NCBI GenBank assembly: GCA_964016885.1
Contig: OZ024742.1
Span: 262,508,001-262,572,000, forward strand
DNA: 64,000 bases
Direction: 5' to 3'
Source of the DNA: Eledone cirrhosa
Lineage: Eukaryota
The notes below the pieces were generated by a model. The model was not told the DNA's origin, searched no databases, and saw nothing but the letters and a program-made list of their open reading frames with translations. A program made the translations under genes and the position numbers. Below, one piece after another: positions 9,982-57,657 of this stretch (position 1 is the stretch's first letter; the number at the start of each line of letters is the position of its first letter).

Positions 9982-10609
9982 TATTTTCCATTTGTTCATA
10001 GATTATATTCAAAACACACTTCTTTGTGTGTTTATCTCTATATATTATAAAGAGCCCAGTTTTTATACCTTGAGTTCATTAATTACAGGGTATTAACTCG
10101 AGTTTTTAACTCCGTTCTCCATTTGTATATATATATTGTTGCATAATATATGCAGACAGATGGTGCAGTGCACCTTACTGCTGCATTAGTGCCTACCTTA
10201 TAGGCACCCGTTTTACGTGTGTTGTGTTGAGGCAAATAACTATGTGTATACTCTGGTAATGTATCTTACATTGCCCATTGAGTGCGCTGAGATACAACGG
10301 GTACTGGCATTGATAAATATGCTGGGTCCGTCAACCCGTATTATATATATATAGATATAGATAGATAGATAGATATGTTTCTTTTTATTTGCCACCAGGG
10401 CATCAAAAAGTGGGACAAGTACAATGGGGGGGGGGGGGGTTACACAAAAAGGCGAGTAAAGAAAACAAATAACAAATATAAAATTAACAATAAAGTCCTC
10501 AATAGGGAGGGGGCGTTTGGGGGGTCGCACACACCCCCGAAAAAAGTGTGCAACCCTTCTCCTCAGGAGCACAGAGAGAGGGTGCTCCTCGTTCCTTCCT
10601 CTTTTCCAC

Positions 10610-13600
10610 CTACAGGCTGATGTAAAGAGAAGGCCCATTCACACGGGCCATTCTCGCCACTTTCACCCACCTTTCATAAAAACGACTGGGGTGCAGCACC
10701 TCTCTCTCCATCCTGATCCTTCTTCCGAAATGATATCGGAAGAAACGGACCAGGTGTTGGCCAGAGAGAAAGGTGCCTGACCTCAGTTCTTTCAGACGCG
10801 TCCACCATACAACCTCTTTCACCATGGCTATTACGCACAGAAACACCGCCTCTCCTTCATTTTTGAAGGGGGAGGCGGCTTGACCGTTACAATAGACTCA
10901 GTGGTCAACCGGATCGGTCCCACCCTTGACAGCAGTTGTTCGACATAGCCCCACAGATCGGCTACGCCAGAGCAGTGTACCAATGCGTGTGAAACGGTTT
11001 CCTCGTCGCACACGCATCTGGGACAGATCTTTTTGGCGGGGTCCCTACCCGGGCGCCCGTGTCTGTAGAGCTTTTCTCGAACGGATAGAGCCCCTCGGTA
11101 GCACTGCCAGGCCAGGGACTTCTGGAAGTTGTCCATAGGTCCCGGGCTGAATGTCCTACCGAACAGGCTGGCCAGTTCGTCTTCCTCCATGTCTAGGGCT
11201 TCTCCGAGGGCGTCGTCGCACCTGCTGCGTACCAGCCCTCTATAGAATTTTGCGGTGGAGTCTTCACTGATAACCGGGTCCGCCTGCCAGAGGGCGGTGA
11301 GCGCCTGGGCACACTCAGTGTGCCAGGCGCCCAGTTTTCTCGGTTTTTGCTTGACCCAGGATTGCAGCTCGGTGAGTGAGACGAGTCTGGGAAAGGTTCG
11401 TCTCACAAACGAGGCCCCCACCGGTTGACCGGTGAGGAATACGTGAAGGTGCCGAAGCCTTAATGCGTGTTTACGCATCATTAGCCACGACATCCCCAGC
11501 CCTCCTTTCGAAGGGTGTTGACAGCAGATGGATCTCCTCACCAAAGGAGCCCGCTTCTTCCAAAGGAATTGGAAGAGTGCGCGCTCCATCTTGGCGAGGG
11601 TTTCCCTTGGGCAAGGCACGACGGTCAGGAGGTAGTAGATGACGGACGCTATATAGGTGTTCGCCACCTCCGCCCGACCTTTCAGGGATAGTTTGCAACT
11701 GGCCCACTTCTGGGTCAGTGCAAACACCCTGTTCGTAACCTCAGCCCAGTTCTTCTCCACCTGGAGGTCTGGTCCGAACCAGACCCCGAGCAACTTCACC
11801 GGGCCCTCCGTCCAGTGTCCGACGACGCCATCGGAGGGCATCGGTTTTCCCCTCCACGTGCCGAGTTGCAAACCGATCGACTTGTCCCGGTTCAGCTTAG
11901 CCCCTGTGAACCTTTCGTACTCCTTCAGTAAGGTGCCGATCGCCCCGATTTCGGAGGCCGTCGACACCATTACTGTCACGTCATCGGCGTAGGCCGACAC
12001 CGCTTTCCGCAATCCCGGTTCCAAAGGGATGCCCTGCAACAACTCCAACTACCGCATAGTGGCTCGAGAGTCAATACATACAGAAAGGAAGAGAGAGGGC
12101 ACCCTTGTCGGATGGACTGCGCGATTTCGAACGGCTCCGAGAGGTAGCCGTTCACCTTGACTCTAGAACAGATGCGGCTGCTGTGCATAGCAGTGATCCA
12201 GCCCCTGAAAACGGGTCCGAAGCCTGCCGCCGCTAGCACCGCATCCAGGTAACCATGGTCGACCCTATCGAACGCCTTAGATTGATCCAAGTTTATCAGA
12301 GCCCCACCTAAGCCGGGTTCGTTCCCAACCCTCTCTATGATGTATCGCATGAGGTGGAGGTTGTCATGGATGGACCTGGACGGGATAGCACATGTCTGCG
12401 CATCTCCCACCAGGTTTCCCACGACAAGCGCCAACCTCTTTGCTAGCACCTTGGCCAAAATCTGTAACTCTGTATTTAGCAGAGTTATGGGCCTGAAGTT
12501 ACTTATATAGTCCCCCTTGTTCTCGTCCTTCCTCACTAGCGTGACTACGCCCTTGGTCACAGCACAGGGAATTCTCCCGTTCTGTTGCCAGTTGCAGTAG
12601 ACCGCCTCGAGGAGATCGGGGAACAAGTCCGGCATAGCTAGATATAGTTCGTATGGAAGACTATCGAGACCCGGGGATTTGCGTTTGCCGCATTGGCTCA
12701 GCACGTCCTCTATCTCAGCGGCTGAAATCGGCTCCTCGCAGGACTTCGCCTCCCTGTCCGAGAGACGCGGCAGGCCGTCGAGGTATGGACCGAAGTCCAC
12801 ATCCCCAACCGGCTCTCCGCCCCTTCCGAACAATCGGGCAAAGTGCCTTTGAAAGGCCTCACACATCTGCTTAGGTTCAAGAATCGCCCGTCCATCCTGG
12901 TCTCGCAAAGACCGGATGGTGGATCTAGTTCCACTCCTGGCTTCTGTCACGCGGGCCCAGCTAACAGCTTTGGCTCCCTCGTTCTCTAGCGCACGTATTT
13001 TACTTCGGACAACGCAGCCTTCGTGCTTCGCGTCGAAAAACTGGCTCAAAGCCGTTCTCGACGCTAGCACTCTGGCCACGTCGCCGCTTCTAATTGCCTC
13101 TTCTACTCTATCTATCAGCTCCCTTTCTTTCCTATTCCTATCCGCAGATAGAACCTTACTAAATTCTATCGAGACTAATCTAATCTCTCTCTTTAGAGAT
13201 ACCCACCACCTGCTGTTGACGATCGCTCCAGTCAACCGCTCCTTAACTAACGTACTAATCCAGTCCCTGTAAGCTTTACTTGCCGGTAAGGACAAGTTCA
13301 GCTTCCAGTAACCGGGGCCCTGTCTATGCGTTCTATCAAGGTTGACCATGCAGGTCACCAACTTGTGGTCTGAATAGCCAACCATGAGCATTTCTGGACA
13401 ACTTAGAAAGTCCCTGTCCTTATTTCTAACTAAGAACCTATCTAGGTACGATCTAGATTGACCGCTGCGATTTGACCAAGACCAGGTTGGCACCGTCGGA
13501 AAATTTAGTCGAAATCTATCGGCCAGGTCAAATCGGCCGAGTAACCCCTTGAGGCTGTTGCACCCCTCTCTATCGGGACATGCCCCTGCATAGTCCCAAC

Positions 13601-14046
13601 GTGCATCCAGGATACCATTCCAGTCCCCCACTAAAAGCAGGGAACGGGACGTCCCTAGAAAAGACTCCAGACGCTGGAAAAAGTCGGGCCGCTCTGTCCC
13701 AAAAGGGGCATATGCGGCTACCAGCCTAAAGGCTCCACCTTCACCACTGCCAAGGTCCAGCACCACCAGTTGACCCCCCTGGGTCCAAGTGAACTATCTG
13801 TGTGGCGAAACCCAGATATTTTTGCAGCAGAACGACAACCCCACCCCCACCTCCAGACTGACAGAGAGATGCGTGCACCTCAAAGTCATCAAAGGTGGGG
13901 GCTAGCTGTCGCATGCTGCTGATCCGGGCCTCGCAGATAACCATCAGATTTATAGATCGTGCCCTGAGGTCATTTAGAAGCATTGCTTGCTTCCAAGATG
14001 AGCCCAGGCCACGCGCATTTAGACACCCTATTCTCAGCACAGCCAT
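10610..14046 (-). pseudogene. Copy A ORF2 (APE endonuclease-RT-zinc finger), broken into 4 pieces
   Basis: ORFs 13741-14070, 11976-13766, 10831-12048 and 10610-10846 are colinear with the intact ORF 41916-45353. Confidence 0.92.
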
Positions 14047-14070
14047 GTTGGTGGTAAGGAGAAAAGGCAC

Positions 14071-15847
14071 TTACCTCTCTGCGTCCCGGGGAGCGGGCCG
14101 CTCAATTTCCATGAGGGTTGGGGATGGGTTGTTGGGTGGGGTGGTGGTTTGTGGAAGTGTAGGGGCATCAGTGTATGGTGGGGTTGGGGTGTTTGTGGTT
14201 GAGTGGGTGTCCGGGTAGGGGGTGGGGAAATTTTTTAGGAGGACGCGGTTGAATGGCTTGGAGCAGGGGGGGGGGGGCACGTCTTCCGTGAAATTTATTT
14301 TCAACATTTTGTATAAGTTCATTGGGACTTTAATCATTTGTAAATGAAGTAGTCCCACAGCAGTTAGAAAGTTGGGCCCTTCAGTTTGGACCGAAGGGTT
14401 TGACGAAATTGTGTTCATTAGTTCTTTGTTGTCTGTGTTCATGTTTGTATATTGTAAAGTCTTTTTTTGCGTAGTGTGACGGGGAGGGGTGGTTTGTATA
14501 TAGTTTGTTTTCTCTTGGGGAGGGTTAATGTTAATAAGTGTGTCTGTGGTGCGCCTCCTCTTCTTTCTTTTTACTATTTGGAAGGGAACTTTTTCGTCTT
14601 GCGAGGAAAGGGGTTCGTCTTCCTTGTTGGGTGGGAGGGGTATATTTTCTGGTAGTGTTTGCGGTGTGTGTGTTTTTGTATTTGTTTTGGGTGGGGAGGG
14701 GTTGGGTGGGACAGTGTTCTGTGTTGTTTTTTCACTTGTTTGTTGTTGTTGTGGTGGTGGTGTTGTTGGTTTTTGTTGTTGTTGTTGTTGTGGTTGTTTT
14801 TGTTGTTGTTGTTGGGGTGGTGGTGGTGTTGGGGTGTTGGTAGCAATGGTTTTTTGTCGGTGTGAGCTGGGGACAGGCAGCCCTCAGGTGACCTCTATTT
14901 CCACAGCGGTAACAGGAGGGACGCCTACCCTCCACAATAATGTTGAGGTGGGTACGGTCATCCAGCATGACGCGCTCAGGGATTTGGGCGATACGTTTTG
15001 GCCTTATTTGGGTCAGAACTTCAATGCTCGTTCCACTGAACGCGTCGCCGGATGCCTTCCCTATTGATATAAGGTTGTCCTCGTCTAAGTTGAGGAAACC
15101 GGTTAGTAACCACCAGTAGTTTATGTTTGGGGTGATGGTGGTTATCCATATTCTTTGGGTTTTTTTACCCATGTAGGTGGGGAAAAAGGTGTAATGTGTG
15201 GAACGAATTGGCGACACAGAGTATTTTTTCGCCGCCAATTCGTCTTTCATCAATATGGATAAACTCCCATAGAGTTTATCCTTTTGTATGAAAATTATGT
15301 CTTTCATAGCCTCTTTCAAGACTAACTGAATTTCAGCTTGAGATGGTTGTGCTGGTTTTTTTGTTTTGTTTGCAATTGTACGGAATACAACAGTTCGTAA
15401 TTGCGTCTGTTTTTTTAGTCCTGGGGGCGAATTGATGGAAAAAGATCCATTTTCGCCAAACGATACATATTTTTTTGCTTTTTCAAGCATTTCTTTTGCA
15501 TTTGATATATCCTCAAGCACATATGTGACTGATATTTTAGCAGTATGTGCAAAAGATATTTTGTTTTCGTTGTTGGTGTTTGAATTGTTTTGTTTCTCGT
15601 AATTTGAGTTGTTTTCATTTTTGTTGTTGTTGTCTTTCTCGTTTGGTGTGTTGGTTTTGTCATTGTTAGTGTTTGAGTTGTAATAAATTGGGTTTGCACC
15701 CGTTTTTAATTGTTTGTCTGGCATATCGCCTTTTACGAAGTCTTTTACAACGTTGACACGTGAAAGCAAAACGCTTTGTACCGCTTGCTTCTTTCTCTCT
15801 TCTTCCTTAGTGAGCGTGGCGTTATCGTCCACACCTGCTACAGACAT
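14071..15847 (-). pseudogene. Copy A ORF1 (gag-like, zinc knuckle), frameshifted in a low-complexity linker
   Basis: CYRCGNRGHLRAAC knuckle in 14732-15847; C-terminal part 14071-14442 ends MEIERPAPRDAER*. Confidence 0.88.
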
Positions 15848-16085
15848 GGCGTCAATTTTTTACCATGTGAGTCAGCAAAATTTTTTTGGAGTAGTTTTTA
15901 CCCCCAAAAGGGGTAAAAATACGATGACCACCCGTCTACAGACCTAGCCGGGTGGTTAAAAGGCACGAAGACAACACAATAAAGAGACAAACACTTACTG
16001 TCAATGGGTAAAAGTTCAAAAAGGCAGGAGCCGATGTTATACGCGTCTATACTATACGAGATAGATAGATAGATAGATAGATATA

Positions 16086-19000
16086 TTTCTTTATTAGCCA
16101 CAGGGGCACAAAAAAGGGGACAAATACAAAGGGGGAAGTTTACATACAATAAAAACGCGTAAAATGTTATCACAAATGCAATTAAAAAAGTTAGTCGATT
16201 TTCCCCAATAGGGGAGACAATTTATATGGATAACACATACCCCCGAAAAAATGTGCAACCCTCATCTCCAGGAGTACGAAGAGTTTGTACTCCTTTCCTC
16301 TCCTCCTCTTTTTCCTCAACCTACAGGCTGATATAGAGAGAAGGCCCATTCACTCGGGCCATTCTCGCTACTTTCACCCACCTTTCATAAAACTTGCTGG
16401 GGTACAGCACTTCTCTCTCCATCCTGATTCTTCTTCCAAAGTGGTATTTGAAAAAAAGAATCAGTTGTTGGCCGGAGAGAAAGGTATCTGACCTCAGCCC
16501 TTTCAACCTTGTCCACGATACAACCTCATTCGCCATAGCTATCACACAAAGGAAAACCGCCTCTCCTTCGTTTTTGAAGGAGGGTGGTGGTTTGATCATG
16601 ACAATGGACTCGGTGGTCAACTGGATTGGTCCCACCCGCGACAATAGTCGTTCTACATAGCCCCACAGGTCGGTGACGCCTTGGCAGTGTATGAATGCGT
16701 GCGCGACGGTTTCTTCGTCTCGTACGCACCTCGGACAGATCTTTTTTGCAGGGTCCCTTCCCGGGCGCCCATGTCTGTAGAGCTTGTCTCGAACTGGTAG
16801 AGCTCCTCGGTAGCACTGCCAGGCCAGGGACTCTTGGAAGTTGTCCATCGGTCCCGGGCGGAAGGTCCTACCGAACAGACTGGCCAGTTCGTCTTCCTCT
16901 ACGCCCAGAGTTTCACCGAGAGCGTTGTCGCACTTGCTCCGGATAAACCCTCTATAGAATGACGAAGTGGAGTCTCCACTGATCACCGGGTCCGCCTGCC
17001 AAAGGGCTGTGAGCGCCTGAGCACAATCGATGTGCCAGTCGCCCATTTTCCTCGGTCTTTGCTTGACCCAGGACTGCAGCTCGGTCAGCGAGACGAGTCG
17101 TGGGAAGGCTCGCCTCACGAACGGGGCCCACCGGTTGTCCGGTGAGGAATACGTAGAGATACCGCAACCTGAGCGCTTATTTGCGCATCGTCAGCCACGG
17201 CATCCCCAGCCCTCCGTTGGAAGGGCGTTGGCAGCAGATGGATCTTCTCACCAAAAGAGCCCGCCTCTTCCAAAGGAATTGGAAGAGCGCGCGTTCCATT
17301 TTGGTGAGCGTTTTGGCTGGACAAGGCACGACAGTCAAGGGGTAGTAGATGGCGGACGCTATATAAGTGTTCGCCACCTCCGCTCAACCTTTCAATGATA
17401 GTTTGCACTCGGCCCACTTCTGGGTGAGTGCAAACATCTTGGCCGACACCTCGTTTCAGTTCTTCTCCACCTGGAGGTCCGGACCAAACCAGACCCCGAG
17501 CAGCTTTACTGGTCCTTCCGTCCAGCGTCCGACGACGCCATCGGAAGGCATCGGTTTGCCTCTCCACGATCCGAGTTGCAAACCGATGGACTTGTCCCGG
17601 TTCAGCTTCGCTCCTGTGAACCTTTCGTATTCCTTCAGTAAGGTGCCGACCTCCTCGATTTGCGAGGCGCTCGACACCATTACAGTCACGTCGTCGGCGT
17701 AGGCCAACGCCGCTTTCCGCAGTCCCGGTTCCAGAGGGATGCCCTGCAATAGCTCCAACTTCCGCAGTAGTGTCTCGAGAGTTAATACGTACAGAAGGGA
17801 GGAGAGGGGGAATCCCTGTCGAATGGATCGCGTGATATGGAACGGCTCCGAGAGGTAGCCGTTCACCTTAACACTTGAGCAGATGTTGCTGTTATGCATT
17901 GCAGCAATCCAGCCCCTGAACACGGGTCCGACGCCTGCCGCCTCGAGCACCGCATCCAGGTAACGATGGTCAACCCTATCGAAAGCCTTAGACTGATCCA
18001 AGTTGATCAGGGCCCCACCGAAGCCAGGTTTACACCCTACCCTCTCTATGATGTATCGCATGAGGTGGAGGTTGTCGTGTATGGACCTGGTCGGGATTGC
18101 GCATATCTGCGCTTCTCCCACCAGGTTCTCGACGACAAGCGCCAGCCTCTTTGCCAACACCTTGGCCAAAATCTGTAACTCTGTGTTTAGCAGAGTTATG
18201 GGCCGGAAGTTGCCTATGTCATCCCCCTTATTCTCGTCCTTCCTGACTAACGTGACTACGCCCTTGGTTACAGAACTGGGAATTCTCCCTTTCTGCTGCC
18301 AGTTGCAGTAGACCGCTTCCAGGAGACCGGAGAACAAGTCCGGCATTGCTACGGAAAATTCGTAGTGTAGACCGTCGAGACCTGGAGATTTGCGTTTGCC
18401 GCATTGGCTCAACGCGTCCCCTATCTCAGCGGCTGAAATCGGCTTTTCGCAGAAATTTGCCTCGCTGTCCGAGAGTCGCGGTAGGCCGTCGAGGTATGGA
18501 CCGAAATCCATAGCCCCTCCCGGCGCGCCGCCCTGCCCGAACAGTTGAGCAAAGTGCCGCTGAAAGGCCGCATACATCTGCTTCGGCTCACGTATCACGC
18601 GTCCGTGTTGGTCCTTCAAAGACCGAATCGTGGACTTGTTGCCACTTTTCGCCTCCGTCACTCGGGCCCAGCTCACAGCTTTGGCTCTCTCGTTTCCCAG
18701 TGCACGTATTTTGCTTCTGACAACGCAGCTTTCATGCTTTGCGTCGAAGAACTGGTCCAAGGCCGTTCTCGTTGCTAGCACGCTGGCTGCGTTCCCACTT
18801 ATAATTGCCTCTTCTACTTTATCTACCAGTTCTTTCTCGGTTCTATTTCTATCTAACGCTAATTCTTTACTAAAAGCTAACGAGTCTAATCTAACTGCCC
18901 TCTTGAGAGAGTACCACCATCTGTTGTTGACAATGGCCCCTGTCAAGTGCTGTTTAACTAAAGTGCTAATCCGTCTACTGTAGGCTTTGCATGTCGGTAA

Positions 19001-20620
19001 CGACAAGTTCAGCTTCCAGTAGCCGGGCCCTTGTTTATGGGTTCTATCAAGGTTGACCATGCAGGTCACTAGTTTGTGATCTGAATAGGCAACAATGAAC
19101 ATTTGTGGACAGCTTAACATGTCCCTATCCTTATTTCTAACTAGAACCCTATCTCGGTACGATCTAGATGTTCTGCTAAGATTAGTCCACGTCCACAGTG
19201 GCACAGTCGGAAAATCTAGTCGATATCTACCGGCCAGGTCAAATCGGCCGATTAACTGTTTGAGGATATATGACCCCCCTTTATCGGGACATGCTCCCAC
19301 ATAGTCCCAACGTGCATCTAGGATTCCATTCCAGTCCCCCACTAAAAGTAAGCAGCAGGACGTTCCCAGAAAAGTCTCTAGACGTTTGAAGAAGTCTGGC
19401 CGCGGTGTCCCGGATGGGGCATATGCGGCCACCAGCCTGAAGGCTCCACCTTCACTACCGTCAACGTCTAAGACCACCAGTCGACCCTCCGGGTCCAGAT
19501 ATACCGTTTGTGTTACGAGGCCCAGGTGTTTCCGCATCAAAACGGAAACCCCGCCCCCACCCCCGGCTGACAGAGAGATGCGTAGATCTCAAAGTCATCG
19601 AAGATGGGGGCCAGCTGTCGCTCGCTGTGGATCCTGGACTCGCAAATGGCTACTACATCCATACTGTGCAACCTGAGGTCGTTTAAGAGTTTGCCCTGTT
19701 TCCAGGGCATCCCCAGGCCGCGTACATTCACACACCCAACTCTTATATTGGCCATGTTGGTTCTGAAAAGTTAAAAGAGGAGAAGAAAACACTCACCTCT
19801 TCGTCTCCCGGGGATCAGACCGCATGGTTTCCATGGGGGTGTTGGAGAAGAGTTGTCTGGGTGGGTGGTGGTTTCCGGCGGGGTGGGGACGGAGATATTT
19901 GGTGGGGTGGGTGTGTCTGGGGTAGGTGTGTCTGGGTGGGTGTGTCTGGGGTGAGGGTGGGGAAACTTTTTAAAAGGACGCGGTTAATGGGTTTAACACA
20001 AGGATTACCCACGTCCTTAGGAAAGTTTTCCTTTAAAGACTTATAGGTGTCCGTAGGGACCCTAATCATCTTTAAATTAGGTTTGTCTACACAGTTCGAA
20101 AAAGTTTTCCCTTCGGTTTTCACCGATGGGTCGTTGGAGATGACCTCCATTAAAGTTTTGTTTTTACTGTTTATGTATGTGTAATGTTCTTGTTGTGTTG
20201 CGGTGGTTTTTGTCTGTTGTTCCTGTGGGAGCTTTCTTTTTGTTGTAGGTGTTTGTGTTTGGAGTGGTTTTGTTTTCGGGACGGGGGGGGGGGTTGTAAT
20301 GTTTGTGTTGTTTGTGTTGGTGGTTGTATGTTTGTAGTGATGTTTGTTGTTTTTTTGTTCTTATGGTGTCTTTTCTTCTTTCTTTTCGAACGGAGAGGCT
20401 CTCCCTCATCTTCACTTGGTGATGATGTGGGGGCCTCGTCAGTTGTGGTCTCTGTGTTATTTTGAAAGGGTATGTTTTGGGGAGCTGTTGTGTTTGTGGG
20501 TGTTTTTGCAGTGGTTTTAGGTGGAGTGGGGTTGGGTGGGACTGTGCTTGCAGGTTGGTTTGTTGTTCTTGTTTTGGTTGTGTTTGCGTGTTGTTGTTAT
20601 TGTTGTTGTGGTGGTGGTGG
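16086..20620 (-). mobile_element. Tx1-clade LINE copy B, 5'-truncated within ORF1, ORF2 disrupted
   Basis: ORFs 19537-19755, 17456-19540 and 16321-17118 closely match copy C; 3' end AATAAAGAAA+(TATC)n; head-to-tail with copy A. Confidence 0.93.
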
Positions 20621-41646: not shown

Positions 41647-41915
41647 TAGACAGATAGATAGATAGATAGATAGATATATTTCTTTATTAGCCACAGGGGC
41701 ACAAAAGAAGGGGACAAATACAAAGGGGGAAGTTTACATACAATAAAAACGTGTAAAATGTTATCACAGATGGAATTTAAAAGTTAGTCGATTTTCCCCA
41801 ATAGAGGGAGACAGTTTATATGGGTAACACATACCCCCGAAAAAAATGTGCAACCCTCATCTCCAGGAGTACGAAGAGCTTGTACTCCTTTCCTCTCCTC
41901 CTCCTTTTCCTCAAT

Positions 41916-44900
41916 CTACAGGCTGATATAGAGAGAAGGCCCATTCACTCGGGCCATTCTCGCCACTTTCACCCACCTTTCATAAAACTTGCTGGGGTAC
42001 AGCACCTCTCTCTCCATCCTGATTCTTCTTCCAAAGTGGTATTTGAAAAAAAGAATCAGTTGTTGGCCGGAGAGAAAGGTGTCTGACCTCAGCCCTTTCA
42101 ACCTTGTCCACCATACAACCTCTTTCGCCATAGCTATCACACAAAGGAAAACCGCCTCTCCTTCGTTTTTGAAGGAGGGTGGCGGTTTGATCATGACAAT
42201 GGACTCGGTGGTCAACTGGATTGGTCCCACCCGCGACAATAGTCGTTCTACATAGCCCCACAGGTCAGTGACGCCCGGGCAGTGTATGAATGCGTGCGCG
42301 ACGGTTTCTTCGTCTCGCACGCACCTCGGACAGATCTTTTTTGCAGGGTCCCTTCCCGGGCGCCCATGTCTGTAGAGCTTGTCTCGAACTGGTAGAGCTC
42401 CTCGGTAGCACTGCCAGGCCAGGGACTTTTGGAAGTTGTCCATCGGTCCCGGGCGGAAGGTCCTACCGAATAGACTGGCCAGTTCATCTTCCTCCACGCC
42501 TAGAGTTTCACCGAGCGCGTCGTCGCACTTGCTGCGGACCAACCCTCTATAGAATGACGAAGTGGAGTCTCCACTGATCGCCGGGTCCGCCTGCCAGAGG
42601 GCTGTGAGCGCCTGAGCACATTCGATGTGCCAGTCGCCCATTTTCCTCGGTCTCTGCTTGACCCAGGACTGCAGCTCGGTCAGTGAGACGAGTCGTGGGA
42701 AGGCTCGCCTCACGAACGGGGCCCACACCGGTTGTCCGGTGAGGAATACGTAGAGATGCCGCAGCCTGAGCGCGTGTTTGCGCATCGTCAACCACGGCAT
42801 CCCCAGCCCTCCGTTAGAAGGGTGTTGGCAGCAGATGGATCTTCTTACCAAAGGAGCCCGCCTCTTCCAAAGGAATCGGAAGAGGGCGCGCTCCATTTTG
42901 GCGAGCGTTTTGGCTGGACAAGGCACGACGGTCAAGCGGTAGTAGATGGCGGACGCTATAAAAGTGTTCGCCACCTCCGCTCGACCTTTCAAGGATAGTT
43001 TGCACTCGGCCCACTTCTGGGTGAGTGCAAACACCTTGGCCGTCACTTCGTTCCAGTTCTTCTCCACCTGGAGGTCCGGACCAAACCAGACTCCGAGCAG
43101 CTTTACCGGTCCTTCCGTCCAGCGTCCGACGACGCCATCGGAAGGCATCGGTCTGCCTCTCCACGATCCGAGTTGCAAACCGATGGACTTGTCCCGGTTC
43201 AGCTTCGCTCCTGTGAGACTTTCGTATTCCTTTATTAAGGTGCCGACTTTCTCGATTTGCGAGGCGCTCGACACCATTACTGTCACGTCGTCGGCGTAGG
43301 CCGACGCCGCTTTCCGCAGTCCCGGTTCCAGAGGGATGCCCTGCAATAGCTCCAGCTTCCGCAGTAGTGGCTCGAGAGTCAGTACGTACAGAAGGGAGGA
43401 GAGAGGGCATCCCTGTCGAATGGATCGCGTAATATGGAACGGCTCCGAGAGGTAACCGTTCACCTTGACCCTTGAGCAGATGTTGCTGTTGTGCATTGCA
43501 GCAATCCAGCCCCTGAACACGGGTCCGAAGCCTGCCGCCTCGAGCACCGCATCCAGGTAACGATGGTCAACCCTATCGAAAGCCTTAGACTGATCCAAGT
43601 TGATCAGGGCCCCACCGAAGCCGGGTTTACACCCTACCCTCTCTATGATGTATCGCATGAGGTGGAGGTTGTCGTGTATGGACCTGGTCGGGATCGCGCA
43701 TGTCTGCGCTTCTCCCACCAGGTTCTCGACGACAAGCGCCAGCCTCTTTGCCAACACCTTGGCCAAAATCTGTAACTCTGTGTTTAGCAGAGTTATGGGC
43801 CGGAAGTTGCCTATGTCATCCCCCTTATTCTCGTCCTTCCTGATTAGTGTGACCACGCCCCCGGTTACAGAACTGGGAATTCTCCCGTTCTGTTGCCAGT
43901 TGCAGTAGACCGCTTCCAGGAGACCGGAGAATAAGTCCGGCATTGCTACGTAAAATTCGTAGGGTAGACCGTCGAGACCTGGAGATTTGCGTTTGCCGCA
44001 TTGGCTCAGCGCGTCCCCTATCTCAGTGGCTGAAATCGGCTTTTCGCAGAACTTCGCCTCGCTGTCCGAGAGTCGCGGTAGGCCGTCGAGGTATGGACCG
44101 AAATCCATAGCCTCTCCCGGCGCGCCGCTCCCCCCGAACAGCCGAGCAAAGTGCCGCTGAAAAGCCGCACACATCTGCTTCGGCTCACGTATCACGCGTC
44201 CGTTTTGGTCCTTCAAAGACCGAATCGTGGACTTGTTGCCACTTTTTGCCTCCGTCACTCGGGCCCAGCTAACAGCTTTGGCTCCCTCGTTTCCCAGAGC
44301 ACGTATTTTGCTTCTGACAACGCAGCCCTCGTGCTTTGCGTCGAAGAACTGGTCCAAGGCCGTTCTCGTTGCTAGCACGCTGGCTACGTTGCCACTTCTA
44401 ATTGCCTCTTCTACTTTATCTACCAGTTCCTTCTCGGTTCTATTTCTATCTAACGCTAATTCTTTACTAAAAACTATCAAGTCTAATCTAACTGCCCTCT
44501 TGAGAGAGTACCACCATCTGTTGTTGACAATGGCCCCTGTCAAGTGCTGTTTAACTAAAGTGCTAATCCGTCTACTGTAGGCTTTGCTTGTCGGTAACGA
44601 CAAGTTCAGCTTCCAGTAGCCGGGTCCTTGTCTATGGGTTCTATCAAGGTTGGCCATGCAGGTCACTAGTTTGTGATCTGAATAGGCAACCATGAACATT
44701 TGTGGACAGCTTAACATGTCCCTATCCTTATTTATAACTAGAACCCTATCTAGGTACGATCTAGATGTTCCGCTACGATTACTCCACGTCCACAGTGGCG
44801 CAGTCGGGAAATCTAGTCGATATCTATCGGCCAGGTCAAATCGGTCGATTAACTGTTTGAGGCTGTTACACCCCCCTTTATCGGGACATGCTCCCACATA

Positions 44901-45353
44901 GTCCCAACGTGCATCTAGGATTCCATTCCAGTCCCCCACTAAAAGCAAGGAGCGGGACGTTCCCAGAAAAGTCTCTAGACGTTTGAAGAAGTCTGGCCGC
45001 GGTGTCCCGGATGGGGCATATGCGGCCACCAGCCTGAACGCTCCACCTTCACTACCGTCAACGTCTAGGACCACCAGTCGACCCTCCGGGTCCAGATGTA
45101 CCGTCTGTGTTACGAGGTCCAGGTGTTTCCGCAGCAAAACCGCAACCCCACGCCCACCTCCTGGCTGACAGAGAGATGCGTAGATCTCAAAGTCGTCGAA
45201 GATGGGGGTCAGTTGTCGCTCGCTGTGGATCCTGGACTCGCAAATGGCTACTACATCCATACTGTGCGACCTGAGGTCGTTTAAGTGTTTTCCCTGTTTC
45301 CAGGGCATCCCCAGGCCGCGTACATTCACACATCCAACTCTTATATTGGCCAT
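41916..45353 (-). CDS. LINE ORF2p, 1145 aa: APE endonuclease + reverse transcriptase + C-terminal zinc finger
   Basis: NVRGL, ICES, GDWN, YLDR, SDH; KSPGLDG, FRPITLLN, DQSKAFDRV, QGCPLS, YADD; CPRC..ETVAHAFIHC. Confidence 0.95.
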   Translation of the reverse strand: MANIRVGCVNVRGLGMPWKQGKHLNDLRSHSMDVVAICESRIHSERQLTPIFDDFEIYASLCQPGGGRGVAVLLRKHLDLVTQTVHLDPEGRLVVLDVDGSEGGAFRLVAAYAPSGTPRPDFFKRLETFLGTSRSLLLVGDWNGILDARWDYVGACPDKGGCNSLKQLIDRFDLADRYRLDFPTAPLWTWSNRSGTSRSYLDRVLVINKDRDMLSCPQMFMVAYSDHKLVTCMANLDRTHRQGPGYWKLNLSLPTSKAYSRRISTLVKQHLTGAIVNNRWWYSLKRAVRLDLIVFSKELALDRNRTEKELVDKVEEAIRSGNVASVLATRTALDQFFDAKHEGCVVRSKIRALGNEGAKAVSWARVTEAKSGNKSTIRSLKDQNGRVIREPKQMCAAFQRHFARLFGGSGAPGEAMDFGPYLDGLPRLSDSEAKFCEKPISATEIGDALSQCGKRKSPGLDGLPYEFYVAMPDLFSGLLEAVYCNWQQNGRIPSSVTGGVVTLIRKDENKGDDIGNFRPITLLNTELQILAKVLAKRLALVVENLVGEAQTCAIPTRSIHDNLHLMRYIIERVGCKPGFGGALINLDQSKAFDRVDHRYLDAVLEAAGFGPVFRGWIAAMHNSNICSRVKVNGYLSEPFHITRSIRQGCPLSSLLYVLTLEPLLRKLELLQGIPLEPGLRKAASAYADDVTVMVSSASQIEKVGTLIKEYESLTGAKLNRDKSIGLQLGSWRGRPMPSDGVVGRWTEGPVKLLGVWFGPDLQVEKNWNEVTAKVFALTQKWAECKLSLKGRAEVANTFIASAIYYRLTVVPCPAKTLAKMERALFRFLWKRRAPLVRRSICCQHPSNGGLGMPWLTMRKHALRLRHLYVFLTGQPVWAPFVRRAFPRLVSLTELQSWVKQRPRKMGDWHIECAQALTALWQADPAISGDSTSSFYRGLVRSKCDDALGETLGVEEDELASLFGRTFRPGPMDNFQKSLAWQCYRGALPVRDKLYRHGRPGRDPAKKICPRCVRDEETVAHAFIHCPGVTDLWGYVERLLSRVGPIQLTTESIVMIKPPPSFKNEGEAVFLCVIAMAKEVVWWTRLKGLRSDTFLSGQQLILFFKYHFGRRIRMEREVLYPSKFYERWVKVARMARVNGPSLYISL

Positions 45354-45393
45354 GTTGGTGCTGAAAAGTTAAAAGAAGAGGAAAAGAAATCAT

Positions 45394-47166
45394 TCACCTC
45401 TTCGTCTCCTGGGGACCAGGCTGCACAATTTCCATGGGGGGTTGGAGGAGTTGTTTGGTGTGGTGGTGGTCTCTGGCGGGGTGGGGACGGAGATGTTTGG
45501 TGGGAGGGGGTGTCAGGTGGGGTGGGGGTGGGGAAACATTTCAAAAGGACGCGGTTATAGGGTTTGATGCAGGGGTTACCTACGTCGTTAGGAAATTTTT
45601 CTTTTAACTGTTTATGTGTGTCCATGGAGGTCCTAATCATTTTAAGATTAGGATTCTCCGAAGAGTGTGTAAAAGTTTTCCCTTCGGTCTCCACCGAAGG
45701 GTTTTTATATATGGTGTCTGTTAAAGTTTTATTGTTAGTATTTATGTAGGTGTAACATTTTTGTTGTGTTGTGTTGCTTTTTGTCTGTGGTTCTTGTGTG
45801 TGTTTACGTTTTGTAGTAGGTGTTTTGTTTTCAGGAGGGGGTGTTTTTGTTTGTGCTGTTTGCGTCGCTTGTGTTGGTGTTTGTGTGTTTGTTGCATTTT
45901 TGTTTGTGTTACGTCTTTTCTTTTTTCTTTTTACTGGTCGGAAAGGCTCTCCCTCATCTTCACTGGGTGACGATGATTAGGCCTCATCCGTGTTGTTGGG
46001 GTGGGAAACATTTTGAGGAGCTGTTATGTGTGTGGGTGTTTCTGGAGTTGTTTTAGGTGGGGAGGGGTTGGACTGTGTTTGTTTTGTTGTCACTATTTTT
46101 TTATGTTGTTGTTGTTGTTGTTGTTGTGCTGGTGTTGCAGTGTTGGCACTAATGCCTATTTTTGGCTAGTTAGCCGAGGACAGGAAGCTCTCAGATGACC
46201 CCTGCTTAGGCAGTAGTAACATGAGGGCCGCCTACCCTCGACCGAAATGTTTATCTATATAAGCCCATCCAGCAGCACACGTTCCGGGATCCTAGCTATT
46301 CGTTCTGGTGTCATTTGGACCAGAATTTCCAGGCTAGTTCCGCTGAACAGGTCGCCGGAGGACTTACCTACCGATATTATTGAGTCTTTTTCGAGGTTTA
46401 AAAATCCACATAGTACCCACCAAATATCAATATTTGGTGTGATACTTTGGATTTTTATTTTCTGTGTTCTTTCCCCATGTAAGTGGGGAAAGAGGTGAAC
46501 AACGGTGACACAATTGGCGACACAAGAATATTTCTGTGCCGTCAGTTGGTCTTTCATCAGAATGGATAAACTCCCGTAGAGTCTACCCTTCTGAATGAAA
46601 GCAATGTCTTTTAAGGCATCTTCTAAAACCAACTCAATTTCGCCTTGTGAAAGTTGAGTCGGTTTTCGGGTTTTGTTTGAGACTGTCCTGAAAACTATAG
46701 TTTTCAAAGCAGCTTCTCTTCGCAAATCTGGGGGAGAGTTTATGGAGAATGATCCGTTCTCACCAAAAGTTATGTATTGTCTGGCGTTATTCAAAAGCTC
46801 ATTTGCATTTGAAATATCTACCGGGGTGTAGCTTACCGTTTTCTTTACGGTTTGCGCAAACGACATTTTGTCGTTTACTTCCTTTTTGCAGTTATTGGTC
46901 TTGTTGTTGATGTTGTTTTCGTTCATAGTATTGTTGTTGTTGTTGTCGCTGGTGTCACTGGTTGTGTTGTTTTTGTTCATTGTTTCACACTTTTGGTTTT
47001 GGTTTGTTGCCATGGCAACGTCAAGTTGTTGATCAGTAGGTGGAGAAAATCCTTCCTCTTACTGACCTTTGTCTTTGACATCTGCTACTATGACAGTGGT
47101 AGGGGGAAGCTGTAAGCATATCTTCCCCTTTCCTCCTTCGAATGTTGGTGAAGAAGCTTCAGCCAT
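45394..47166 (-). pseudogene. Copy C ORF1, frameshifted
   Basis: ORF 46255-47013 is homologous to copy A ORF1; knuckle CYYCLSRGHLRASC near 46180-46222; ends MEIVQPGPQETKR*; start position uncertain. Confidence 0.8.
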
Positions 47167-47402
47167 TTTTTTTTTAAATGTTAGTTTTTCAAAAAACAAT
47201 TTATGAACTATTTCGCCTAAAGGCGTAGAATATTTTGAGAGACTGACCAGATCAAAATTTGACCTGGCAATCCCTCTACAAATTGGTATAAAAATGAAGG
47301 TTCACAGTTAAGAGTTTCTATAGAAATTTAGGCAGAACTTACCCAGCAAGTTTCATGCGTGTGTCCATCCCAGAAATAGATAGATAGGTAGATAGATAGA
47401 CG

Positions 47403-47468
<66 letters not shown>

Positions 47469-47469
<1 letters not shown>

Positions 47470-48892
47470 TTCTTTATTTGACACAAGGGAGGTTTTACAT
47501 AAAAATCGGCGGGGGTTTTACATAAAAATCGTATAAACTTTAACATTAATAAATAACAATAAACTATATATTAAAAAATTAACAATCGAAATCCCCAATA
47601 AGGGGGGACGTTACTGAATGGTTGTTTTACACCCCGTAGATAGAACAATCCTCAACATCAGAAGCACGTTTTGTAAGTGTTCCCGTCTTCCCTCTGTTTG
47701 TCTTCCTCAACCTACAGGTTTATATACAGAGAAGGCCATTCACTTGGGCCATTTTCGCCATATTCACCCACCTTTCAGTGAATTTATTGGGGTGTAGCAC
47801 CTCTCATTCCACTCTCACCGTCCTTCTGAAGTGATACTTAAAGAAAGGGATACGTTGTTGTCCGGAGAGGAAGGTGTTTTCCCTCAGTCCTTTCAACCTC
47901 TTCCACCATATCACCTTTTTCTCATAGCCACCAGACAGAGGAAAACCGCCTCTCCTTCATTCTTAAATGAAGCCGGCGGGGGGATCCTCACAATGGACTC
48001 GGCTGACAACTGGATGCATCCCACATGTGGCAGTAGCTGTTTGACATAATTCCACAGGCAAGTCAATCATGGGCATTGAACAATTGTGTGAAGAACAGTT
48101 TCAATGTCCTGCTCGCATCTTGGACAGGTCCTTTTGGCAGAGACCTCTGGAAGTTATACATAGGCCCTGGATGGTAAGGCCTCCTGAACAGACCGGTTCG
48201 TCCTCTTAGATGCCTAGAGTCTCCCCGAGAACGTCGTTGCACTTATCCTCTACTAATCCCCTATAGAATGTCGACGTGGAGTCTCCGCGGATTGCCGTTT
48301 CCGCTTGGTAGAGAGCTGTGAGCGCCTGAACGCACTCTCAGGTGCCCATTTTCGGGGATTCGCTTGACCCAGGACCGCAGCTCTGTTAGCGAGACGAGTT
48401 GTGGAAAAGCTCATCTCACAAACGACAACCACACCGGTTCGCCGGTCAGGAATACCTGGAGATAGCGTAGCCTCAGCGCATGTTTGCGCATCATCGGCCA
48501 CGGCATGCCCAGCCATCCGCTAGAAGGGTATTGGCAGCAGATGGATCTCCTCACCAATGGAGCTTGTTTCTTCCAAAGGAACTTGAACAGTAGAAGTTCC
48601 ATTTTGGTGAGGTGATCGGGGACAAAGCACGACTGTCAAGCGGTAGTAGATAACGGACGCTATGTAAGTGTTCGCTACCTCCGCTCGACCTTCTAAGGAG
48701 AGTCTGCACTCAGCCCACTTCTGAGTGAGTGCAAACACCTTCGCTGAGACCTTGTTTCAGTTTTTGTCCACCTGGAGGTTTTGGATCAAACCAGACCCCA
48801 AGCAATTTCACCGGTCCTTCAGTCCAGCGTCCAACGACGCTGTCGGACGGCATGGGTTTGCCTCTCCATGAGCCGAGCTGCAAACCGACAGA
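47469..48892 (-). mobile_element. Tx1 copy D, 5'-truncated and decayed, head-to-tail with copy C
   Basis: ALTQKWAECRLSLEGRAEVANTYIAS, FLWKKQAPLVRRSICCQ; GATA-like flanks. Confidence 0.88.
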
Positions 48893-48949
48893 CTCGTTAG
48901 ATAGAAAGACAGACAGAGAGATAGAGAGATATATAGATAGGTATAACTA

Positions 48950-49644: not shown

Positions 49645-50774
<1,130 letters not shown>

Positions 50775-52102: not shown

Positions 52103-55100
52103 GGCTTTTTCGGAGAGGTTTGGATCTCGCCATACGGGCCATCTTCCTGGACCCAGAAGGTAAGTTGGTGGTGCTGGACGTGACCAGCGGAGACGGGCAA
52201 GCTTTCAGGCTAGTGGCCGTCTATGCCCCGACAGGAGCAGGGCGGCCTGATTTCTTCCGGCATCTGGAGACCTTTCTTGGAACATCCCGCTCTTAGAGTG
52301 TTAGTGGGCGACTGGAACGGGATCTTAGATGCACGCTGGGACTGTGTGGGATTAGCGGATATGGGAGGAGGGTGCAAGAGCCTCACCAACCTGCTCAGGC
52401 GTTTTGAACTGTCTGACAGGTACCGATTGGATTTCCCGAATGTGCTAATGTGAACTTGGACAAACCGCATCGGGTCATCCAGATCATATCTAGATCGAAT
52501 ATTTTGTAGGGAAATAGATAGGTCTAGCATAGGCTGTCCACAATTCAAGATAGTCAGCTACATGGACCACAAATTCGTGATCTGTGTGCTTGACTGAGAT
52601 AGTCTTCATAGACGACGACCCGGTTACTGGAAGCTAAACGCGTCCTTACCAGCACGCAAGGCCTACAGAGACGTGATTAGCGAACTAGATAAGCGAGCGT
52701 TGACGGGAGCCATCGTCAACAACAAGTGGTGTTTGATCTGAAAAGAGCGATTAGAATAGAGTCCATTAGGTTTAGTAAGGTTTTAGCTATAGAGAAAAAT
52801 AGAGCAGAGGGAGAACTAGTTAGAAAATTAGACGAGGCGCTTAGAAAAGGCATCGCAACCGACGTACTTGCGGCGAAATTCTTCAATGCAAAGCACGAAG
52901 GCTGCGTTGTCAGAGCTAGGATGCGTGCTCTCAGACACGATGGGACGAAAGCCGTTCAATGGGCCCAAGTGGCGGAGGCGCGTCGTGGCAACAAAGCCAC
53001 GATCCGGTCTTTCGTGGACCGCGACGGGCGCATGCTACTCGATCCTGGACAAATGTGTGAAGCTTTTCAGCGACACTTCGCTCAGCTGTTCCGGGGCAGC
53101 GGCGGGCCGCATCGAGGGATGGACTTTAGTGTCTACCTCGACGGACTGCCGCGGCTCTCGGCCACTGAGGCGGAGTGTTGCGAAAAGCCGATAACAGCCG
53201 CTGAAGTACGGGAGGCAATGACTGGCTGCACAAGGGGTAAATCGCCTGGTTTGGATGGTCTGCCCTATGAACTTTACGTAAAGATGCCAGACTTGTTCGG
53301 AGGCCTCTTGGCGGACGTCTACTGCAACTGGCAACAGAACGGGAGAATTCCCAGCTCTGTGAGCCGAGGAGCTGTGGCGCTGCTGAGAAAGGATCCGAAC
53401 AAGAGGGATAACATAGATAATTTCAGGTCCATAACTCTGCTAAACACAGAGTTCAAGATTTTAGCCAAGGTGCTAGCAAAGAGGTTGGCGCTTGTCGTTG
53501 GTGGTCTGGTGGGAGAGGCGCAGACATGCGTCATTCCCGACAGATCCATCCACGACAACCTCCACCTCATGCGATACATCGTGGAGAGGGTAGCTAAGGA
53601 ACCTGGCACTGGTGGGTCCTTGATCAATTTAGATCAGTCGAAAGCTTTCGATAGGGTCGACCATCGTTACCTAGCGGCAGTCCTGAGGGCGGCTGGCTTT
53701 GGGCCCGTCTTCAGAGGCTGGATCGTTGCCATGCACAGCGACATCTGCTCTGTGGTGAGAGTGAACGGTCACCTTTCCGAACCGTTCAACATCATGCGCT
53801 CGGTCCGCCAAGGATGTCCCCTCTCATCCCTCTTGTACGTATTGACTCTCGAGCCATTACTGCACAAACTGGAGACGTTGAGGGGGTCCCGCGCGAACTA
53901 GGATGCGGAAGATCCGTGTCAGCATATGCGGACCATGTCATCGTAGTGGTGTCGAACGCCAAACACATCGAGGCGATCGGCACTACACTAAGAGAATACG
54001 GAGCGGTGACAGGAGCAATGATCAACCAGGAAAAGTCAGTGGGCCTGCAGCTCGGCTCCTGGAGAGGCAGGTCCATCCATCCAACAACGTCGTCGGGCGC
54101 TGGATGGGCGGAGCGGTTAAATTGCTAGGGATCTGGTTCGGTCCGGACCTCCAGACGGACAAAAACTGGGACGAGGTGACGAGCAGGGTGGCTTCTCTCA
54201 CCCAGAAATGGGCCGAGAGGAAGCTATCCCTGAAAGGTTGAACGGAGGTGGCTAACGCGTACATCGCGTCCGTCATCTACTACCTCATGACCGTCATACC
54301 TTGTCCTAAGTCCAGCCTGACTGCGCTGGAGCGTTTGCTCTTTCGTTTTTTTGTGGAAGGGACGCGCTCCAATGGTCAGGCGGTCCATCTGCTGTCAACA
54401 CCCGCTACGTGGAGGGATGGTCATGCCGTGGCTAATGATGCGCAGACACGAGCTCAGGCTACGACATCTCCACCTCTTCCACGACGGTGATCAGGTGTGG
54501 TCGCCGTTTGCTAGACCCATCTTCCCCAGCTCGTCTCCTTGACGAAGCTGCTGTCCTGGGTCAAGCGTAGACCGAGAGGGAGCGCTTGGAGACTGGAATG
54601 TCTTCAGGCGCTCACAGCCTTCGACCAATCGGGCAATTTAATCGGAGGAAACTCCACCTTGCCGTTCTATAGAGGATTGGTGGAGGGGAAGAGCGACGAC
54701 GTACTTGGGGAAACTCTAGGCGTCGACGAAAATCAACTAGCCAATCTCTTCGGAAGAACTTTCGGGCCGGGTCCTATGGACAACTTCCAGAAATCCCTGG
54801 CCTTGCAGTGCTACCGAGGAGCTTTGCCAGTTCGGGATAAACTCTACAGGCATGGAGGTGCCGTCAGCCGGGCATGTCCGAGATGCGCGCAGAGCGACGA
54901 AACCGTCCTGCACGCACTCGTCCAGTGTCCGAAAATTGCTGACTTGTGGGTTTATGTCGAACACCTGCTGTCGCGTGTAGGACGGATCCGGCTATCATCT
55001 GAGTCCATCGTGAGGATTGCCCCGCCCTCTTCCTTTAGCCGGGAAGGGCAGGAAGTTTTTATCTGTCTGGTGGCCATGGCGTAAGAGATAGTATGGTGGA

Positions 55101-55540
55101 CACGTTTGAAAGGGCTGAAGACGAGCACTTACCTCTTCGGTGATGCCCTGATTAACTTTTTCAAATTTCATTTGAAAAGGAAAATCAGAGTAGAGAGGGA
55201 AGTGCTCTCTTCCCAACATTTTGTTGAAAGATGGGTGAGAGAAGCAAGAATGGTCCGAGTGAACGGGCCTACTCTGAGTATATATCTGTAAATTAAAGGT
55301 GGAAAACTGGGAGAGGGCACTTGCCTTGGTGGTCAGGATCACTGTGGCCTTTTACTGGGCTTTCTCCACAAATGTCCCTCCGAAGTCTCCCCCCTATTGG
55401 GGAACTTTTCATTGTTATTTTTTGTTACATCCTCTGTTTTTGTTTTTTACACGCAAAAATGCCCATTTGTACCGTCCTGTATTGTCCTGTACTGTCCTTA
55501 ATATCTACTTTATGTAAACCCTTGTGGTTAATAAAGAAAA

Positions 55541-55608: not shown

Positions 55609-57597
55609 CTCTTTGAGTCTCAGTCATTGATGTTAGTTAACTGGAAAGTTTGTTGAAATGAATATCAAGCCACTACCTGCAGCCTCAGATATTCAGTACG
55701 TATCGGAGGGTTCTTGCTGTTCCCAGCAAGCATGCCTTTTGAAGCGTTCCAAAAAGCGTGAAGGGCCCAATTTTCTTTAACCATCCCTGGAAAGTTTTTG
55801 AGATAGTCCCTAGTGCGCCTATGACAATCGGGATCACTTTGACTTCATGGCAGTTCCAAATCCTTTTTACCTCCCACTTTAAGTCCTGGTATCGGTTAAT
55901 TTTCTCCTTCTCCTTCTCTTGCACTCTCGTGTCGAATGGGCAGGCCACATCCACAATCAGGCACGATCTTTTTTCTTTGTCCAAAACCACCAGGTCAGGT
56001 CTATTGTGTTCCAGTTTCTTGTCCGTCTGTATCCTAAAATCCCACAGCACCTTCACCTGATCGTTTTCTATCACCGACTCTGGCTTATGCTCATACCACT
56101 TCTCAGAATGTGGTAAATTGTTTACTTTGCATAGGTGCCAGTGGATCACCCTGCCCATCACATCATGTCTCCAGCTCTTATAGTGAGTCTGGGCTAGGTG
56201 TTTACACTCGGATACAATGTGAGCCACAGTCTCCTCTCTCTCTCCACAGATCCTGCACAGTGGGCTAGCCTCCTCCTTGTAAATGTGGTGTTTCAACCAC
56301 TTCGTTTTGAGGGCCTGCTCCTGCGCAACCATTAACATTCCTTCTGTAGCCTTTTTAAGGTCTCCTCTTTTCAACCAGTTCCATGTCTGTGGATCTCTAA
56401 ATTCAGTTTTCTCAAAGAAGGTACTATGAAGGGATTTTTCCTGAAGGCTGCTATTTCTCCTTGATGTTATTTCCTCCTTGGACATCCCCTGGCCTATTGT
56501 CCCCTCCTTCAGTACAGTTCTGAGCATTGGCTCCTTACTATCAGTCACGTATTTTTGTAGGTTGTTTTTCTCCATCTGAACACAGTCCTCTATGCTGATA
56601 AGACCTCTTCCACCTTCAGATCTCCTTAAGTAGAGTCTATCGACATCACTCCTCTTGTGGAACATATTGTAGATAGTAAATAGCTTCCTAGTCTTCCTAT
56701 CCATTTCTTTTTGTTCAGCAACATTCCATCTCAGAATTCCCGCACTGTACCTAATAATAAAAACAGCTCGGGAATTTACTGCACTTATGGCATTCCTACT
56801 GTTCAGATGTGACTTTAATACGCTCCTTACTCTCCGAAGGTATTCACTTCTTATCAATTCCTTCATTTTTTTGTTCTTGATGTCATCAGCCTCCAGAACG
56901 CCCAAATACTTGTATCCTTCCTCAGAGTAAATTTCCCTTATCATCTCACCTGTTGGTATCTGGATTCCGTTACTTCTGCTCAACTTACCCCTCCTCATCA
57001 CAATGACTCCACACTTACTAATACCAAATTGCATACATATATCATTGCTGAAAATACGGACAGTGTCAACAAGCACATCCAACTCCTTCTCACTCTTCCC
57101 GAAGAGCTTAAGATCGTCCATGAAGAGGAGGTGATTGATGGTAAGCCCTCCCTTTCCCAACCTGTATCCTGCTCTCACCTTTCGCAGTACACTGGTCAGG
57201 GGCATCAGGGCAAGGACAAACAACAGAGGGGACAGACTATCTCCCTGGAAGATACCTCTCTTGATCTTCACGCTTCCCAAGGATTCTCCAGTTGATGTTA
57301 ACTCTGTTTCCCAGGACTTCATACTTTTGCCCAACAACTGTCTGATGTTATCTGCCACCTTGAAGATCTCCAGGCTTTTGGTGATCCAAGAATGAGGCAC
57401 CATGTCAAATGCCTTTTTGTAGTCTATCCATCCCATGGCAAGACCAGTGTGTCTCCTCTTGCAATTCCTCATTACCATCTTATCAATAAGTAACTGGTCC
57501 TTTGTACCACGTGACTTCTTTCGGCATCCTTTCTGTTCGTCCGGTAACAAGTTGTTTGTGTGGAGGTGATGGTAGATTTCCTTAGACATAATGCTTG

Positions 57598-57600: not shown

Positions 57601-57652
<52 letters not shown>

Positions 57653-57657
57653 TATTA

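Follow-up and report, generated by a model that had tools for sequence, protein, structure and literature searches.

Apparent 5' splice sites conserved at the ORF1 stop and in the 5'UTR of Tx1-like LINEs from Eledone cirrhosa, and chimeric copies joined exactly at them

Tx1-type long interspersed elements (LINEs) such as Kibi, Koshi and crocodilian Tx1 have two open reading frames (ORFs), with a zinc knuckle in ORF1 and an endonuclease and reverse transcriptase (RT) in ORF2, and insert into microsatellites; splice signals are unmentioned in the accessible part of their description (PMC4494074; here and below, statements on cited papers refer to the accessible parts of their text). In human L1, an autonomous LINE, the 5' untranslated region (5'UTR) has a conserved, rarely used 5' splice site (donor), for which sequestration by RNA structure was proposed. 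Its rare spliced RNAs leave retrocopies, the spliced integrated retrotransposed elements (SpIREs), which make up ~2% of full-length copies, are spliced within one element and are mostly dead ends (PMC5860796). A 64,000-nucleotide (nt) stretch of Eledone cirrhosa DNA (contig OZ024742.1, positions 262,508,001 to 262,572,000), called the window below, was analysed together with its source assembly (GCA_964016885.1, 3.0 Gb, animal); the repeat landscape is probably of the kind known from octopus genomes. Three related two-ORF LINEs, A, B and C, were identified in the window, all on the minus strand and every one ending in (TCTA)n, and two apparent donors comparable to that of human L1 were revealed in their families, one over the stop codon of ORF1 and another in the 5'UTR.

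Because the 6-kb RNA of a LINE has to escape splicing, selection would be expected to remove perfect donors; nonetheless two were retained in every family examined for them. Of 137 junctions at the ORF1 stop, 92 have a full 8/8 match to AG/GTRAGT (the slash marks the exon end) 15-50 nt before the ORF2 ATG, whereas none of 822 control windows taken at these loci does; exact GTRRGT is present at 110 of the 137, a set which includes loci picked for donor anomalies and in which copies within one family are not independent. Exact GTRRGT was also present in 31 of 40 rows collected blind to the donor (counted by eye). The site thus agrees with the 5' splice site consensus of U2-type introns. All three stop codons were found, each inside a donor-compatible hexamer (GTAAGT, GTGAGT or GTAGGT).

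Many more subfamilies came to light when ORF2 or an upstream Met-Glu motif served as the search anchor, and G/GTRRGT at the ORF1 stop was shared by two clades ~70% identical in ORF2, despite a shift of the stop phase. In the first 1.4 kb of ORF2, clade J shares 68-71% identity with families A-I, and its ORF1 is unalignable with theirs as DNA, while the donor is retained with the stop at +6..+8 (G/GT AAG TAA). Since clade J keeps the donor with the stop moved out, the hexamer is maintained independently of that codon. What overlies the ORF1 stop is a conserved and apparently functional 5' splice site; the feature is real, and evolutionarily deeper than the initial annotation of the window, made from its letters alone, had seen. 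As a separate observation, families E, F and J1 (L230-L234, L224-L229, L141) have a third donor-like site, GTGAG or GTAGGT after the TAG that ends ORF2, which A, B, C, G, H and I lack; another perfect AG/GTAAGT lies within the ORF1 of C (window 46362-46367, minus strand) and is lacking in A.

All nine families whose 5' end was recovered (C, N, A, E, I, H, F, J1 and K) have the second donor, 30-65 nt from that end; B, G and J2, with no recovered 5' end, fall outside this count. No AG at a shared position after this donor was found across the families, E and H being without one. A 5'UTR intron within C was considered and rejected: 10 of its 13 matches were antisense and lay in the ORF2 end, two were point mutants and one was a chimera (L264, below), and 105 copies were intact. 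Three further features were observed in the 5'UTRs. The last 15 nt of the C 5' exon (window 47342-47356) are near-complementary to the ORF2 end near 41985-42000, which may be chance at such length. In E, H, I, K and A (L232, L144, L143, L292 and window 15900-15925) a common inverted repeat (T-run, C-run ... G-run, A-run) follows the 5' donor, and ~40 nt past this donor there is a TTAAC/CTAAC word.

Three kinds of genomic chimera were found in which the join falls exactly at a donor and leads to the base following an AG in another repeat. Where C, B or E exon ends were not followed by G, the 45 rows comprised 18 of junction 1, 4 of junction 2 and 23 point changes or small deletions. At junction 1 the C-type exon end continues into F-family sequence from the base after CAG; it was present, in dispersed copies, at 23 of the 30 loci retrieved, and the remaining 7 were chance matches. 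Junction 2, carried by 4 copies, joins the C-type ORF1 end to an N/F hybrid carrying junction 1, again behind a CAG, at a point 75 nt upstream of that junction. This junction turned up unselected among the junction-1 copies and was the sole backward register jump shared by several copies in the 99 examined, the others being single-copy or due to the reference. The N-type ORF1 upstream of junction 1 was found in plain F copies too, and genome searches returned no native family with an N-type ORF1 end and its own donor.

The 4 junction-2 copies and 3 in-register relatives carry a C-type ORF1 (85-89% identical to C, six scored) on an F-type ORF2 (91-94% to F, seven scored); two of them display the C 5'UTR, and six of the seven grouped in an ORF2 tree with weak support. 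In the third kind, a single copy (L264), the C 5' exon is joined at its donor to the base after TAG in a repeat resembling a short interspersed element, 17 of 39 natural copies of which have TAG at the join site. Thus the joins run from a donor end to a post-AG start, microhomology being possible, and two of the three kinds have multiplied. Such rare joins were likely made by splicing and founded hybrid families.

Two conserved donors, no conserved partner AG, no locally spliced copy found and three kinds of chimera joined exactly at a donor have to be explained together. The explanation preferred here, tentatively and as somewhat short of probable, is that the donors serve as docking sites for the U1 small nuclear ribonucleoprotein on an RNA which normally stays unspliced, that ORF2 is made by re-initiation, and that occasional splicing into neighbours shuffles the 5'UTR and ORF1. 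In other systems U1 is known to stimulate transcription near promoters and to protect RNA from premature polyadenylation. By analogy, U1 bound at both donors of an RNA staying unspliced would raise the yield of the full-length 6-kb intronless RNA, through promoter-proximal stimulation and a shield from premature polyadenylation. A predicted hairpin between the spacer and the exon side of the ORF1-end donor would keep splicing rare, and ORF2 would be translated by re-initiation at its own ATG. In a transcript reading through tandem elements, an arrangement seen in the window for B and A, a rare splice would carry the upstream 5'UTR and ORF1 to an AG just before the spacer of the downstream element. 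ORF2 and the re-initiation signal would then survive, so the product could found a hybrid family.

Several points weigh against this explanation. The U1 role is argued by analogy, and the conserved 5'UTR donor of human L1 was explained by a RUNX3 site and not by U1 (PMC5860796). The chimeras represent just three founding events; junction 1 came from a donor-anchored search, L264 is a single copy with its first base mismatched, and among the genomic copies searched the donors of A/F/K, B and J yielded no chimera. Because the donor side ends in AG, an AG at the recipient is also explained by 2-nt microhomology in template switching. In-register recombination is frequent in the family: B and C are 92-96% identical in ORF2 and merely 70-75% in ORF1, so that they have different ORF1s, and 3'UTRs were swapped between families too (L220, L222, L128). 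One 5'-truncated F copy (G000:C1:338431851-338431929; 1 of 100 rows listed) starts at the junction-1 base, which would fit an RT stopping there and favours template switching. As for the hairpin, own arms paired better than arms swapped among 11 families (three windows, p 0.0009-0.011; no effect once the windows were slid, 0.21-0.82), with windows picked after looking and relatedness between families not removed. Compared with shuffled arms the effect was weak per family (mean z -0.77; 4 of 15 under p 0.05). The 16-representative set left out three decayed, old, donor-less copies (L140, L142, L145), and its F representative proved to be an A variant and was dropped from the 15-representative set. 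Pairing between the exon side of the donor and the spacer is therewith suggestive, as a prediction.

Upstream of the junction, a Met-Glu motif (ATGGAR) was found 45-95 nt before the ORF2 ATG at 27 of 30 loci picked without that motif. In frame and 12-15 codons ahead of the ORF1 stop, the pair is also present at window 19833-19831 and 14112-14110 and at the J/K loci L153-L182, and was kept where ORF1 DNA is otherwise unalignable; its ATG could start a short upstream ORF aiding re-initiation. These signals allow a different view, namely that the conserved block is a translation-coupling signal, composed of a hairpin with the stop at its top, the Met-Glu motif and the CAAC-ATG-G start of ORF2, that the donor likeness is incidental and that the chimeras arose by template switching at the hairpin. 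The covariation of the hairpin arms, the conserved ATGGAR and the frequent in-register recombination would fit it, but all loop variants stay inside the donor consensus even in clade J, where the stop has moved out, and the same hexamer occurs in nine 5'UTRs which have neither a stop nor an ORF junction. Moreover, three out-of-register joins coincide with donors: two run from the exact exon end to the base behind a CAG, and one lies at the 5'UTR donor. A purely translational signal is held to be unlikely.

The initial annotation had read the junctions of B and C as introns of 34-37 nt, whose removal would fuse ORF1 to ORF2 into a gag-pol-like protein, with readthrough as the alternative in A. 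Its description of the B and C junctions is correct base for base (Table 1), and in both copies joining the donor to CAG would land in the ORF2 frame. In A, the AG/GTAAGT and the lack of an AG ahead of the ORF2 ATG were confirmed, the spacer being 28 nt from the donor G to the ATG, of which the 21 nt given before omit the last 7. The donor of C is the donor site of its family, decayed in this copy. The TGA inside the donor is likely the ancestral ORF1 stop, as indicated by its plurality among copies (11 of 27 C-type copies, the other two frames having 7 and 9; among A-type copies 16 of 30, vs 4 and 10) and by a peptide shared with A. In the window copies B and C themselves it is out of frame with the upstream ORF1, because of frameshifts in C-rich runs.

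The splicing itself found no support. No copy lacking the spacer was found with both exon anchors 0-14 nt apart (a search that did not extend to distances of 15-29 nt), vs 638 copies with the same two anchors and a gap of 30-45 nt. In the copies compared, the donor GT is kept, and the AG and its frame are not general. AG precedes the ORF2 ATG in 4 of 15 subfamily representatives and is missing in 11; B, C and E, which are closely related, have it in frame, as CAG joins over spacers of 31-39 nt, whereas that of J2 is out of frame. Of 137 junctions, 42 had an AG within the 15 nt ahead of the ATG, mostly those of the C/B/E group and J2, and CAG was absent from G, H, I, A, F, K and J1, where G and H are the nearest ORF2 relatives of B/C and of E. 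A conserved in-frame 3' AG, as expected for a U2-type intron, was thus lacking. The distance from donor to branch would be under 30 nt, whereas ~50 nt or more is needed in human extracts and spliceosomes, a threshold from human data (PMC6692369). Shorter introns are known in animals (PMC13644364, PMC4463651), so length alone is no bar to a micro-intron. Readthrough, in A as elsewhere, found no support either, as ORF2 occurs in all three frames relative to ORF1 across families.

Further searches gave the same picture. The CAG of B/C/E joined to any other donor returned 2 matches, both deletions, and no joins from the donor to inner AGs of ORF2 were found among the copies searched. Several search patterns ended in a 'not C' letter and missed ~1/4-1/3 of rows, and the test was redone at another offset. 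A control anchor upstream of the donor gave mostly another repeat family and one microhomology deletion. Background rearrangements were observed in L097, L091 and L086, a single-copy 204-nt duplication over the junction and two microhomology deletions. In contigs from four sequencing runs of undefined type, the 15 matches listed included no joint at either donor, which is neutral either way.

A fusion made by splicing, be it through the 34-37-nt intron or through an AG in ORF2 codons 5-7 (an intron of 41-61 nt), is on these grounds unlikely, and a very small probability is assigned to it. In its favour are the in-frame CAG joins of B, C and E, an AG 14 nt into ORF2 which would be in frame with phase-2 donors, and a TAG at 19 nt which would be so with phase-1 donors; a fusion-only RNA might also fail to retrotranspose in cis and so leave no genomic copies. 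But the in-frame CAG looks single-origin, which gives its frame a prior of one in three, and with AGs in two phases on offer one is expected in frame by chance. The context of ORF2's own ATG was retained in every family found (ATG being part of the search patterns), which also speaks against a fusion. The site over the ORF1 stop is quite probably a real donor which is not used for a micro-intron.

Routine splicing from this donor to a distant acceptor, in the element's own 3' end, a neighbouring element or host DNA, would yield an ORF1-only mRNA, with the chimeras as side products; copia-type elements make Gag from a spliced RNA in this way. The donor lies exactly at the ORF1 end, so that a spliced RNA would retain the whole ORF1, a pyrimidine run and TAG/G are present at the ORF2 stop in families A-I, and the chimeras point to splicing at the ORF1-end donor. 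Among genomic copies, however, no splice product was found from this donor to the 3'UTR or elsewhere in the same element, even though rarer inter-element joins were captured; a SpIRE-like pair of donor and acceptor within one element was thus lacking. In addition, J1 is without the pyrimidine run at the ORF2 stop, the donor phase differs among clades, and the 5'UTR donor would be left unexplained, so routine splicing of this kind is rather improbable. The whole ORF2 as a single intron, from the donor to the ORF2 stop, was likewise rejected: no retrocopy was found, the lone match (L071) was unrelated DNA, and J1 has no conserved acceptor context.

It is known for fungal telomerase RNA that the spliceosome can cleave without ligation. 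A cut of this kind at the donor would produce a lariat-capped ORF2 RNA and a free 5' exon onto which RT could jump, and if the RNA had a 3' end at the donor, this would account for jumps to precisely that position. Most long spacers do contain a donor, a pyrimidine run and a TTAAC/CTAAC-like word without an AG. Against such a cut, the distance from donor to branch is 20-30 nt, the released ORF1 exon would have neither stop nor poly(A), A, F and K are without a clear branch word, and the CAG in both recipients is left unexplained; it is regarded as extremely improbable. Little credence is also given to the broader proposal that the spliceosome takes part in the normal life cycle, through a trans-acting fusion via the AG of ORF2 codons 5-7 (an intron of 53-61 nt) or through a ligation-free cut, with the donor at the same time a joint for 5'UTR-ORF1 exchange between LINE families.

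The elements in the window and their signals are given in Table 1. The ORF2 of C contains PF03372, PF00078 and PF13966, an apurinic-type endonuclease followed by RT, as in L1/Tx1-type LINEs. The ORF1 of A has a CCHC zinc knuckle (PF00098, E 3.4e-4, just over the cutoff), which was counted as the separate ORF1 of such LINEs. A database search with ORF1 returned no homologue, and no named Tx1 element was among 93 ORF2 homologues. The flanks are (TCTA)n or (TCTG)n in A-I and K and (ATT)n in J1 (by eye, uncounted), that is, microsatellite targets as in Tx1, at other repeats than those given for Kibi, Koshi and crocodilian Tx1. Two-ORF structure and targets both agree with Tx1, a label used here as a putative one. 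Elsewhere in the window, 52110-55275 (+), 47372-48897 (-) and 55685-60789 (-) contain more truncated relatives (~70% to C) and two RT-bearing ORFs of other LINE types, and a tandem array with a 16/31-nt unit in ~46 copies occupies 49987-50703.

Table 1. Positions, in window coordinates, of the three LINEs and of the signals discussed
Feature	Position	Strand	Remarks
Element A, full length	10347..16058	-	one frameshift in ORF1 (15847-14071), which has a zinc knuckle; broken ORF2 starts at 14046
A ORF1-end donor and spacer	14047..14074	-	GTAAGT 14074-14069; 28 nt, without AG
A 5'UTR donor GTAAGT	15993..15998	-	second donor of this element
Element B, 5'-truncated	16059..20619	-	tandem, directly upstream of A
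B spacer	19763..19796	-	34 nt; donor GTGAGT 19796-19791 to CAG ending 19763; ORF2 ATG 19755
Element C, full length	41652..47371	-	flanked on both sides by (TCTA)n microsatellites
C ORF2	41916..45353	-	1145 aa, open; endonuclease, RT, zf-RVT; own ATG in CAAC-ATG-G context
Putative 37-nt intron of C	45361..45397	-	donor-like GT at 45397, CAG ending 45361; no copy with it excised found
Predicted hairpin, C	45375..45403	-	purine run before donor pairs with pyrimidine run of spacer
C ORF1-end donor	45392..45397	-	GTGAAT here, GTGAGT in most C copies
C ORF1	45394..47166	-	stops and frameshifts break the frame; probable ancestral stop TGA 45396-45394
In-frame ATG of Met-Glu motif, C	45433..45435	-	12-15 codons ahead of ORF1 stop
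C 5'UTR donor GTAAGT	47337..47342	-	~30 nt from 5' end; used in chimera L264

The major splice donor of retroviruses acts through U1 to suppress polyadenylation, and copia and EVADE make a spliced gag RNA. The proposed function of the donors here would resemble both, in that a retroelement donor steers the fate of the RNA and not a protein fusion; those are long terminal repeat elements with defined acceptors or poly(A) sites, none of which was identified here. Replacement of the 5'UTR and ORF1 recurs in LINE evolution, and the chimeras offer a concrete route for it, splicing between tandem neighbours. If the donors are indeed U1 docking sites, this would be a LINE using the splicing machinery to protect its own RNA.

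In the literature searched (short of Repbase reports, most subscription journals and supplements, so that an earlier description is possible) nothing on point was found for an ORF1-ORF2 fusion made by splicing, nor for a LINE with a donor at its ORF1 stop, and the terms 'splic', 'chimer' and 'ORF1' are absent from the accessible main text of an octopus repeat paper (PMC13282606). Unlike in SpIREs (PMC5860796), no within-element spliced copy was found here, a second donor lies on the ORF1 stop, and the products combine two elements and have multiplied. In chimeras of mRNA and L1, too, a donor forms the exact end of the 5' part and acceptors lie within or next to the LINE, and splicing rescues L1 compromised at its 5' end; their donors come from host exons, and no LINE-to-LINE exchange of ORF1 is described in the accessible text (bioRxiv 10.1101/2025.02.02.635956). 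SVA_F1 (MAST2) and STK40-SVA are likewise new subfamilies founded by splicing of an upstream exon into an element, but there the donor belongs to a host exon and the element is non-autonomous (PMC6139936), whereas in the present families two autonomous-type LINEs would have exchanged their 5'UTR and ORF1.

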